Of a stretch of DNA of 64,000 nt, positions 45,354-47,149 are shown piece after piece. The stretch comes from Shigella phage ESh17, in the sequence record ON528727; one strand, 5' to 3'. Both the position numbers and the translations under genes were made by a program. The notes beneath the pieces were generated by a model that saw only the letters and a program-made list of their open reading frames with translations, searched no databases and had not been told where the DNA came from. Within the stretch, counting starts at the first letter, position 1; every line of letters starts with the position of its first letter.

Positions 45354-45959
45354 ATGAAAATGCAAAGTGATTTCAATTCAATGTTTGAAGAGTTCCAAAG
45401 ACAGGTTGATGTTCCAGATCAATTACTAAATGCTCTTAAACGTATGGCAGAAGGACGTAATTACTATTGGGGGTCTTCATATGAAACTGATGAAAGTCTT
45501 TCTGGATTTTATAAAGGTAAAAAGTCTTTAATACGTCCTGGAATACTCATTAAAAGTATTGAATCAATTCATTCATTGACATGTGATTTTGATGTTGAAT
45601 TTACTGATTTCATTTCTCCTGAATGGACGGTTTGTTATTTAAACGACGATTATGATTATCTTGGCGTTTATAGTTTAAGTGACGCATGGTTTAAACGTAA
45701 TTTACAAAAGTCAAATTTGTTCTATATTGATACTACGGTAAAATTTCAGGGAAAGAAATATTTCTTTACTCTTATAGTTGACTCTGAAACAAAATATGAA
45801 AATAAGCGTATTCTTAATAAAAAGAATATCTTAACTATCGTTGATGATCTTTTTGATAAATTCGTGGAAAATCCTAATTTTGAAAGCGATTTATTATTAG
45901 AAAAATTTGTTAAGGAATGTAGAGAATATGTCAAAGCCATCACTATACCTTCCAAGTAA
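45354..45959 (+). CDS. hypothetical protein, 201 aa
   Basis: ATG ORF; C-terminus KFVKECREYV shares the junction motif of the following genes. Confidence 0.5.
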   Translation: MKMQSDFNSMFEEFQRQVDVPDQLLNALKRMAEGRNYYWGSSYETDESLSGFYKGKKSLIRPGILIKSIESIHSLTCDFDVEFTDFISPEWTVCYLNDDYDYLGVYSLSDAWFKRNLQKSNLFYIDTTVKFQGKKYFFTLIVDSETKYENKRILNKKNILTIVDDLFDKFVENPNFESDLLLEKFVKECREYVKAITIPSK

Positions 45960-46320
45960 ACCTGTGAAGTATGAACTAAAGCGTCAGCTAATTCCTACTG
46001 ATGTATTAATAGGTCCTGTGACAGCTATATCATTTGTAATTCTATTGGTTGTTGGAATGGTTATAGACTTTATGACTGATATTGAATCTGGCGTAATATT
46101 TTTGTTAGTATTAATTCTTCCATTAGTAGTTCCGCTTTTATTAGTACCTATAAATTGGATAGGATATTGGTATCAAGGAAGACACTATCGTAAACGTGTA
46201 CGTGATTGGAAAGCTCAGTGTAAAAAGATTAAAAAGGAACATCAGCTTAAACTTGCTGCGCATGAATTTGATGAAATTATGAAATTTGTTAAGGAATCAC
46301 GATGCAAAAGCCAAAACTAA
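45928..46320 (+). CDS. two-helix membrane protein, member 1 of a tandem family, 130 aa
   Basis: start at ATG 45928 (ORF-track 45907 is TTG); two hydrophobic helices then a basic tail ending FVKESRC. Confidence 0.5.
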   Translation: MSKPSLYLPSKPVKYELKRQLIPTDVLIGPVTAISFVILLVVGMVIDFMTDIESGVIFLLVLILPLVVPLLLVPINWIGYWYQGRHYRKRVRDWKAQCKKIKKEHQLKLAAHEFDEIMKFVKESRCKSQN

Positions 46321-46664
46321 ATAAAGTCAAATATTCTCTTCCTGAGTCATTTTTAATTTTTGCTGTAGCGTTGGCTGCAGCTCTTGCGGGTAGTCTTTTT
46401 GGATTGTTAATTGACTGTCTTATTTTAAACATTGACGGCACAGTAAATATAATAGAAGTTTGGAGTGAACTTCACTATACTAAAATTATTTCATTATTTT
46501 CATTCTTTGGTACAATGTTATATTTTCATTATGATAATTTTAAAATAAATTGGCAAAGAAAAAAGGATTACAAAATACAATTAAAGGAATATAATAGCTA
46601 CATGTCTTATATTGAAAAAGAATCAATGGAAGAGTTTGTGAGTGATTGTAGGAAAATTAAATGA
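46302..46664 (+). CDS. two-helix membrane protein, member 2, 120 aa
   Basis: two hydrophobic helices; C-terminus EFVSDCRKIK. Confidence 0.5.
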   Translation: MQKPKLNKVKYSLPESFLIFAVALAAALAGSLFGLLIDCLILNIDGTVNIIEVWSELHYTKIISLFSFFGTMLYFHYDNFKINWQRKKDYKIQLKEYNSYMSYIEKESMEEFVSDCRKIK

Positions 46665-47145
46665 TTTTAAAAACTCGCTGGTATGATTTAGATGATGGGG
46701 ATGATGGCATTTCAGTTGATAGAGTTGACTGGAATGGTTGTTCCGAAGATATGAAAAATTTGTTGATTAGGGAGTTTAGAATGGGATATCAAGCAGCTAA
46801 GCCATCTATTATAACAGATGATAAATTCGTGTGTATTCATAATGGTCGTGCTAAGTTAACGAACGCTGATTGGTTCACAGATAAAATTATGATTCTGTGG
46901 TATATTATTAGTCTTCCTGTGACATCATTCGTATTTTACTTTTTTATAAAAAATCCAATGGACAGAATAGGAGATTGGATTCTTTTAACCATACTTGTTA
47001 ATATTTTTACAGCAGCAATATTATCTGGGATATGGTGCGTGTTCATTGAAATGCCATGGCGGCTACGCAGACAGCAAAAGATTTTTGATGAAAAGAAATA
47101 CACTCAAAATTTAAATAACTTTATCACTGAATGCAGGAAATTAAA

Positions 47146-47149
<4 letters not shown>
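46661..47149 (+). CDS. two-helix membrane protein, member 3, 162 aa
   Basis: C-terminal two helices; C-terminus [10 protein letters not shown]; ATGA overlaps. Confidence 0.5.

Follow-up and report, generated by a model that had tools for sequence, protein, structure and literature searches.

The e.5–e.2 genes of a T4-type Shigella phage share a C-terminal motif at junctions that also carry the next ribosome-binding site

About half of the genes of bacteriophage T4, e.2 to e.8 included, still have no assigned function. Four of them, e.5, e.4, e.3 and e.2 (T4p128–T4p125; PHROGs 2607, 2604, 2330 and 2203), lie in a row between e.6 on one side and nudE and the lysozyme gene e on the other, and the T4 annotation already describes e.2, e.3 and e.4 as 'predicted membrane protein'. 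We analysed the same block in Shigella phage ESh17 (sequence record ON528727), using a stretch of 64,000 nucleotides (nt) that we call the window and in which the four genes fill positions 45354–47149. This 1.8-kb segment was 98.8% identical in DNA to Shigella phage SHBML-50-1, a Tequatrovirus, and matched 504 records of T4-type phages. Set against the T4 reference map, the order here is e.6, e.5, e.4, e.3, e.2, nudE, e, with the overlaps and flanks of T4. Because DNA identity, full-length PHROG matches and gene order agree, the four open reading frames (ORFs) are orthologues of T4 e.5, e.4, e.3 and e.2, and the segment is the e.5–e.4–e.3–e.2–nudE block of a T4-type phage. A first-pass annotation, made from the letters of the window, had described three adjacent, overlapping ORFs and a preceding gene upstream of nudE and lysozyme; we recovered them exactly, and the comparison with T4 e ORFs that it proposed led to e.2–e.5. 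One gene differs in length: e.2 is intact at 162 amino acids (aa), whereas the T4 reference copy is truncated to 102 aa.

Three described systems resemble parts of this block. The T4 superinfection immunity protein Imm, an early protein of 83 aa with two transmembrane segments, is, like the products of e.4, e.3 and e.2, a small early inner-membrane protein with two hydrophobic helices that is dispensable in the laboratory. Class II holins such as S21 of phage 21 have the topology predicted here, a charged cytoplasmic C-terminal tail and a gene near that of the endolysin; the holin of T4 itself is T, which is unrelated. In the hyperplastic regions of T4-type phages, repeated promoter-early stem-loop cassettes have reportedly been proposed to drive modular shuffling. 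As with those regulatory cassettes, short conserved boundary sequences in a variable accessory region lie at deletion and fusion end points in the e.5–e.2 block. Unlike the promoter/terminator cassettes, the repeat here is coding, comprising a C terminus and a ribosome-binding site, and it is conserved at the amino acid level across genera.

The pattern F[VI].[ED][CS]R occurred exactly four times in a six-frame translation of the whole window, in which shuffled sequence would give 0.33 ± 0.57 copies. All four copies were found near the stops of the four consecutive genes, 11 (e.5), 5 (e.4), 3 (e.3) and 3 (e.2) residues away (Table 1), confirming that the C-terminal motif that the first-pass annotation had seen in the three ORFs and their upstream neighbour is a real, non-random feature of T4 genes that were already catalogued. 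The product of e.5 ends in LLLEKFVKECREYVKAITIPSK, that of e.4 in MKFVKESRCKSQN and the tail of e.3 in MEEFVSDCRKIK. A scan of T4 at 1–50 kb and 150–169 kb, regions that together with the window cover about 134 of the 169 kb of a T4-type genome, revealed no other copy at a C terminus. The unit that all members have in common is a C-terminal module, [LMI]-x-x-F-[VI]-x-[ED]-[CSIV]-[RK], and not the whole protein. Its hydrophobic residues are spaced i, i+3, i+4, i+7, the last position being Cys (Ser, Ile or Val in e.4), and this spacing suggests that the module forms the final turns of an amphipathic helix. An internal e.4 peptide, RDWKAQCKKIK, was considered as a second motif copy and dismissed; in the e.4/e.3 alignment it pairs with KDYKIQL of e.3 and not with the terminal motif.

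The nucleotides that encode the module also serve the next gene. Overlaps of 32, 19, 4 and 4 nt join e.5/e.4, e.4/e.3, e.3/e.2 and e.2/nudE, and the final codons of each preceding gene contain the Shine-Dalgarno element for the ATG that follows (Table 1), as the first-pass annotation had noted. Its further claim of translational coupling fits these overlaps, but sequence alone cannot show coupling. Minimum free energies of the junction RNAs were not notably below those of shuffled sequence, and RNA structure was ruled out as the cause of junction conservation on these unremarkable folding energies. The annotated T4 start of nudE is an upstream ATG (MQEIKMKTL) that lies inside the e.2 motif codons and lacks a Shine-Dalgarno element (window 47131–47149). 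The ATG at 47146 is more likely to be the start, because AGGA stands 7 nt upstream of it and it overlaps the e.2 stop.

How closely the four proteins are related depends on the pair. In profile–profile comparison (hhalign) of alignments drawn from three genera, e.4 and e.3 matched end to end over 117 columns, with a probability of 94.8% and an expectation value (E) of 4.9e-8. The score of 49.0 compares with 17.8 ± 4.1 (maximum 33.4) for 100 block-wise column shuffles, which preserve topology and composition, with 12.5 for the reversed alignment and with about 14 for the control T4 Imm, an unrelated protein with two transmembrane segments. Common features are M-x-K-P-x-L...K-Y at the N terminus, I-N-W past the second helix, and the tail. 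Because the end-to-end match exceeds the shuffled, reversed and Imm controls, their sequences identify e.4 and e.3 as true, full-length paralogues. BLASTP and profiles built from close relatives gave weak values only (E=0.005–0.09), and the comparison became informative once homologues from Mosigvirus and Gaprivervirus were added.

Elsewhere in the set the resemblance is local. Between e.2 and e.3 it was confined to the last 21 residues (E=1.3e-5); e.4 against e.2 gave E=0.03–0.06; and e.5 matched e.2 (E=4.5e-4) and e.3 (E=7e-4) over 9–15 residues only. Similarity of the whole hairpin plus tail, as would mark e.4, e.3 and e.2 as a single paralogous family, was not found for every pair. The paralogous family of the first-pass annotation is therefore upheld at full length for e.4 and e.3, but it shrinks to the C-terminal 9–21 residues for e.2 and e.5. 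The module is also found on other bodies. The Mosigvirus protein moskry_151, which has two transmembrane segments and ends in LENFIKECRGK, matches the e.3 tail over 50 aa (E=1.8e-6), and the Gaprivervirus protein at the e.5 position is unrelated to e.5 save for its last 15 residues, LNRFIAECREYAKGV (E=2e-4).

Kyte–Doolittle (KD) analysis placed two hydrophobic segments in each of e.4, e.3 and e.2 and none in e.5 (Table 1). Past the second helix follow basic tails with net charges of +9 (e.4, 50 aa long), +2 (e.3) and +6 (e.2). The description of each as two hydrophobic helices with a basic tail thus stands for e.4 and e.2 and, as to the tail, for all three, but the second helix of e.3 is weak and e.2 has an additional soluble N-terminal domain of 75 residues. 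The N terminus carries +3 in both e.4, where it includes the conserved peptide MSKPSLYLPSKP, and e.3, and the loop of each is acidic (-2 and -3, respectively); in e.2 the loop is +1 and the N-terminal domain -3. With basic N termini, acidic loops and basic tails, e.4 and e.3 would insert with both ends inside the cell, and we infer that e.4, e.3 and e.2 are inner-membrane N-in/C-in hairpins whose conserved end peptides face the cytoplasm. A low-confidence AlphaFold2 (AF2) model of e.2, computed from a shallow alignment with a predicted local distance difference test (pLDDT) score of 52, has helices at 69–96 and 103–161, the second transmembrane segment continuing into the tail as a single helix; the single-sequence model of e.5 scored 41.

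Selection acts unevenly along the three membrane proteins. We compared seven Tequatrovirus sequences, taking the tails outside the overlaps (24–43 codons). The ratio of nonsynonymous to synonymous divergence (pN/pS) in N terminus, hairpin and tail was 0.27, 0.68 and 0.13 for e.4, 0.28, 0.41 and 0.11 for e.3, and 0.23, 0.54 and 0.07 for e.2, and synonymous divergence in the tails was ordinary (pS 0.13–0.32). In protein alignments, near-invariant N- and C-terminal segments accordingly enclose highly variable, allele-like helices. The soluble e.5 had a pN/pS of 0.08.

The junctions are also places where the block breaks and rejoins. A scan of IMG/VR returned only four related loci, and the GenBank phage collection served in its place. 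An IMG/VR genome (L006) has the e.3 tail linked at the motif straight to the e.2/nudE junction, with precise removal of e.2, and the e.2-less junction recurs as an uninterrupted match of 129–131 nt in at least 15 phage records, Yersinia phage PST, PP01 and RB33 among them. In tblastn searches, Tequatrovirus records with e.2 numbered about 50 fewer than those with e.3. An in-frame chimera of phage UFV05, e.4(1–32)::e.2(89–162), is joined at the shared TCCTGTGACA in the first helix; one e.4 variant has lost the entire hairpin in frame; and in phage moskry just the two ends of e.3 remain. In the T4 reference e.2 (L001; NC_000866 67490–67960), an A-run has lost 1 nt and 1 nt has been inserted about 75 nt further downstream, a compensated double frameshift (-1/+1) that introduces a stop after 102 codons and leaves the motif and the nudE junction in frame downstream; other natural isolates have the 102-aa form as well (clusters P0192 and P0193). 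The repeated junctions are recombination points for cassette loss and fusion, and the block is a dynamic accessory region.

The range of the family is narrow. Distant copies found by tblastn had about 50% identity in Mosigvirus and 25–35% in Gaprivervirus and a Yersinia phage, and Dhakavirus had e.2 only; the e.5 family was found in 643 phage records. An exhaustive HMMER search of 1.84 billion representative proteins with a combined e.4 and e.3 profile yielded nine hits, every one a T-even variant of e.4/e.3. The family is confined to phages of the Tequatro-, Mosig-, Gapriver- and Dhakavirus types. All 98 clusters of e.4 homologues carry the precomputed assignment PF26873, and every e.2 match carries PF26896. 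As a separate observation, a 703-nt ENA contig (P0098) encodes a predicted protein of 97 aa in which residues 1–31 of e.4 precede an unrelated sequence of helix-turn-helix type (precomputed PF08279); it probably arose by chimeric assembly or by recombination.

What is known of these genes in infection comes from T4. RNAs of e.2–e.6 were classed as early, and by protein e.4 and e.5 fell into the early, e.2, e.6 and NudE into the middle and e.3 into the late class (PMC9697503, supplements 4 and 6). In a CRISPRi-ART screen, e.2–e.6 were all scored 'Not Fit', meaning knock-down without a fitness defect (PMC11879866, supplement 15). Our literature search found no paper giving a function or phenotype for e.2–e.5.

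We favour, at a probability of about 0.5, a reading in which the hairpins are membrane anchors and the tail helix docks on a common partner at the cytoplasmic face. The hairpins of e.4, e.3 and e.2 would serve mainly to anchor the proteins in the inner membrane, and the motif would be the end of an amphipathic helix that docks onto that partner, which may be the other members of the set, in which case the soluble e.5 would be tethered to the membrane, or else a single protein of host or phage on the cytoplasmic side of the membrane. The set would then be a dispensable, host-specific accessory module with no part in lysis or core replication. Early, dispensable and patchily distributed genes usually are accessories for host interaction.

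Two alternatives place the value of the motif elsewhere than in the protein. It could be a by-product of encoding the Shine-Dalgarno element and the surroundings of the start codon for the gene that follows in translational coupling, with no function in the protein. Every junction does have that element within or just past the motif, in AAG-GAA or AGG-AAA codons, and there are ATGA stop/start overlaps and downstream genes that overlap by 4–32 nt. However, the element sits on different motif positions from gene to gene, on the K-E codons in e.5 and e.4 (AAGGAA), on the R-K codons in e.3 and e.2 (AGGAAA) and downstream of the motif in Gaprivervirus e.5 (AAAGGGG), and the most conserved positions, Phe and Val/Ile, are 9–15 nt upstream of any Shine-Dalgarno element. 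Across Tequatro-, Mosig-, Gapriver- and Dhakavirus the residues are constant but the codons change (CGT, CGC, CGA, AGA or AGG for Arg, TGT or TGC for Cys, TTT or TTC for Phe); purifying selection spans the whole 24–43-codon tail, far past the overlap, with pN/pS of 0.07–0.13 at normal pS; and the junction RNAs fold unremarkably. Residues kept with changed codons, a shifting Shine-Dalgarno element and low tail pN/pS together place the constraint on the protein, the nucleotides being used a second time as a ribosome-binding site. More than an imprint of the next Shine-Dalgarno element, the motif is kept with different codons and where that element lies elsewhere, and we consider the by-product explanation unlikely. 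The other alternative makes motif and junction mainly a recombination linker: gene conversion would keep the ends similar, and cassettes of variable membrane genes could be gained, lost or swapped in frame with coupling to nudE preserved, by analogy with the regulatory cassettes of the hyperplastic regions. The precise loss of e.2 between the e.3 and e.2 motif copies in many phages, the lower count of records with e.2, the e.4::e.2 chimera and the unrelated Gaprivervirus protein that bears the e.5 tail and junction all speak for it, as does the identity of Tequatrovirus junction pairs over 16–17 nt. Yet any repeat can be expected to recombine as a side effect, without selection for it, the conserved tail is far longer than the microhomology that recombination uses, and between genera it is the amino acids that are conserved and not the nucleotides. 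The linker idea is partly supported, but it leaves the amino acid conservation across genera unexplained, and as the main role of the motif we hold it to be possible at best.

Two further alternatives keep a protein function and change its nature. Lysis timing, one of the roles suggested in the first pass, would make the two-helix proteins holin-like or antiholin-like factors, remnants or auxiliaries of a holin–endolysin cassette. Their hydropathy and charge pattern (two transmembrane segments, N-in/C-in, charged C-terminal tail) is compatible with class II holins, and they lie two genes upstream of lysozyme e. Against this, holins are late proteins, t, rI and rIII account for lysis timing in T4, searches of Pfam, PHROGs and NCBIfam yielded no holin match, and e.2 is often deleted or frameshifted, in T4 itself among others. 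In contrast to class II holins, three tandem copies and a soluble protein have the tail in common here, and no essential role is seen: knock-down had no effect on fitness (PMC11879866). The early RNAs of T4 e.2–e.5 and the early e.4 and e.5 proteins fit lysis timing poorly (PMC9697503); we rejected the holin reading on expression timing and regard it as very improbable. The proteins might instead act as Imm or Sp does, changing the envelope so that superinfecting phage are kept out, or block a membrane-based host defence, both being suggestions of the first pass. Early expression, dispensability and small membrane-protein architecture agree with such a role, an arms race could explain why the hairpins vary so much (pN/pS as high as 0.68), and the genes are patchily distributed, having often been gained and lost. 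But Imm has neither the long basic tail nor the motif, and hhalign comparisons with it (E=0.07–0.34, scores 11–15) stayed within the shuffle background, on which ground homology to Imm was rejected. The predicted periplasmic loops are short (6–17 aa) and unconserved, the conserved and constrained parts of e.4, e.3 and e.2 being predicted to be cytoplasmic; no PADLOC or anti-defence family was matched, and no published phenotype was found. We therefore think exclusion or defence blocking improbable for this set.

Several observations weigh against the anchor-and-docking reading. The CRISPRi-ART negative is weak, as lysozyme e, listed there as essential, was likewise 'Not Fit' (PMC11879866, supplement 15). 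Ser, Ile or Val in place of the motif Cys in e.4 means that Cys is not universally required. Topology was assigned by the positive-inside rule alone, and hydrophobicity is weak in the second helix of e.3; both AF2 models are poor (pLDDT 52 and 41), leaving the picture of a docking helix to the sequence pattern. Within Tequatrovirus the motif nucleotides are identical over 16 positions between e.5 and e.4 and over about 17 between e.3 and e.2, and gene conversion may contribute to the likeness. Searches of Pfam, NCBIfam, PADLOC and PDB returned no structure or homologue that hints at function.

In a tentative, more far-reaching reading, up to five T-even early proteins, otherwise unrelated or diverged, would use the [LMI]xxF[VI]xE[C]R helix as a portable docking peptide for one shared site on one partner on the cytoplasmic side of the inner membrane. 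Its users would be three to four membrane hairpins and one to two unrelated soluble bodies, acting as swappable adaptors whose hypervariable hairpins set the location or the host membrane protein targeted. In a remote variant the tails might link the membrane to the core of the assembling prohead, because the F-I-x-E↓ core equals that of the signal (MKTYQEF-I-x-E↓A) by which T4 internal proteins are targeted to the capsid and cleaved by gp21, in which F-I-x-E and a small residue correspond to the motif core. The likeness covers four residues only, and the signal is N-terminal on soluble late head proteins, whereas the motif is C-terminal on early membrane proteins; at the nucleotide level there is no relationship past that expected for identical residues.

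The paralogy of e.4 and e.3 and the C-terminal module were not recorded in the sources searched, and databases treat the four genes as unrelated families. New, but incremental, are this paralogy, a portable module in five families, variable anchors set against constrained tails, and cassette loss mediated by the junctions. The paralogy, the five-family tail peptide and the near-freely evolving hairpins give a concrete handle on the e.5–e.2 block. Because five gene families share one strongly constrained tail peptide, 10–20 residues of it could be used as bait for the partner, and the effects of motif point mutations can be told apart from those on the ribosome-binding site. With a coding repeat at its gene junctions, a block can also lose cassettes in frame and leave translational coupling unbroken. 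Practical value is modest, as the genes are restricted to T-even phages and dispensable in laboratory hosts.

Table 1. Positions in the window of the e.5–e.2 genes, their motif copies, hydrophobic segments and ribosome-binding sites, and of neighbouring features.
Feature	Position	Strand	Remarks
Early-type promoter-like site of e.6	44646-44674		TTTACA-17-TATAAT, 11/12 matches
e.6 orthologue	44719..45312	+	197-aa coiled-coil protein, upstream neighbour; PHROG 1203 E=5.5e-88, T4 synteny, pN/pS 0.04
GC-rich hairpin, e.6/e.5 gap	45318..45333	+	GGGGC-TTCG-GCCCC; sequence, RNA fold, scan
e.5 orthologue	45354..45959	+	201 aa, soluble; PHROG 2607 E=1.6e-107
Motif copy 1, e.5	45906-45923	+	FVKECR
Shine-Dalgarno of e.4	45912-45917		AAGGAA; K-E codons of e.5 motif
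e.4 orthologue	45928..46320	+	130 aa; PHROG 2604 E=1.4e-70, residues 1-130/130 covered
e.4 hydrophobic segment 1	46003-46071		aa 26-48, mean KD 2.5
e.4 hydrophobic segment 2	46090-46167		aa 55-80, mean KD 2.3
Motif copy 2, e.4	46285-46302	+	FVKESR
Shine-Dalgarno of e.3	46291-46296		AAGGAA; K-E codons of e.4 motif; e.3 ATG at 46302
e.3 orthologue	46302..46664	+	120 aa; PHROG 2330 E=2.2e-60, between e.4 and e.2
e.3 hydrophobic segment 1	46350-46430		aa 17-43, strong, KD 2.3
e.3 hydrophobic segment 2	46482-46532		aa 61-77, weak, KD 1.0
Motif copy 3, e.3	46635-46652	+	FVSDCR
Shine-Dalgarno of e.2	46650-46653		AGGA; R-K codons AGGAAA of e.3 motif; ATGA stop/start 46661-46664
e.2 orthologue, full-length form	46661..47149	+	162 aa; PHROG 2203 E=2.2e-79, directly upstream of nudE
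e.2 hydrophobic segment 1	46886-46948		aa 76-96, KD 2.1
e.2 hydrophobic segment 2	46973-47053		aa 105-131, KD 1.8
Motif copy 4, e.2	47120-47137	+	FITECR
Shine-Dalgarno of nudE	47135-47138		AGGA; R-K codons (AGGAAA) of e.2 motif; ATGA stop/start 47146-47149
nudE (e.1)	47146..47586	+	Nudix hydrolase; Pfam NUDIX E=8.5e-14, PHROG 1185, T4 synteny; last cistron of overlapping series
Lysozyme e	47624-48118		after nudE

Database searches added little on function. Sequence searches of Pfam, NCBIfam, PADLOC and PDB with e.5, e.4, e.3 and e.2 gave nothing significant, and none of these or e.6 matched a PADLOC defence or anti-defence family. Several GenBank records name e.3 or e.4 orthologues sulfurtransferase, a name we rejected because neither Pfam nor NCBIfam gave a rhodanese or sulfurtransferase match at E≤0.1. 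Other records label them DNA primase, serine decarboxylase, phosphoserine phosphatase or head outer capsid protein, without profile support. These function labels look like propagated annotation errors.

On the upstream side, e.6 is very strongly conserved. BLASTP against an approximate E. coli PspA sequence aligned 153 colinear residues at 24% identity (E=0.03). Pfam did not support a PspA/IM30-like protein and a PDB profile search contained neither PspA nor Vipp1, and we set the likeness aside as an unsupported weak lead. The hairpin in the e.6/e.5 gap is unlikely to be a full terminator because no T-run follows it on the + strand, and a promoter scan detected no strong promoter within e.5–nudE. 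With a promoter-like site before e.6, a hairpin after it that lacks a T-run and no strong promoter within e.5–nudE, the predicted layout fits one polycistronic early transcript. Downstream, 47575–47655 contains the stable hairpin (minimum free energy -15.4 kcal/mol against -8.2 ± 2.6 for shuffles; unpaired probability of the AUG 0.04) that sequesters the Shine-Dalgarno element of lysozyme e and its AUG when early transcripts read through. Hairpin-based translational control of e is a classical T4 feature, with which this structure agrees.

Outside the block, two ORFs of 157 aa, at 43277–43750 and, after lysozyme e, at 48213–48686, start with MKSYTQFLNEA and MKTYQEFITEA. Near-identical terminator-like hairpins at 43203–43226 and 43758–43781 (AGCCC[CT]AGCCGAAAGGTTGGGGCT plus a T-run) flank the first. 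Because their N termini resemble the capsid-targeting and gp21 cleavage signal, these ORFs probably represent variable cassettes for internal proteins, with repeated regulatory hairpins at their borders.

A second C-terminal motif, with no copy in the window, occurs in Mosig-, Gapriver- and related phages, in which three to six tandem small genes (65–100 aa) follow e.3 and their products end in W-[VF]-[SN]-S-S-x-x-C. These genes make up another paralogous array whose members share a C-terminal motif, found at L007 (3992–4786), L008 and L009 (4191–5243), L010 (about 3230–4100) and L012 (3216–4699).

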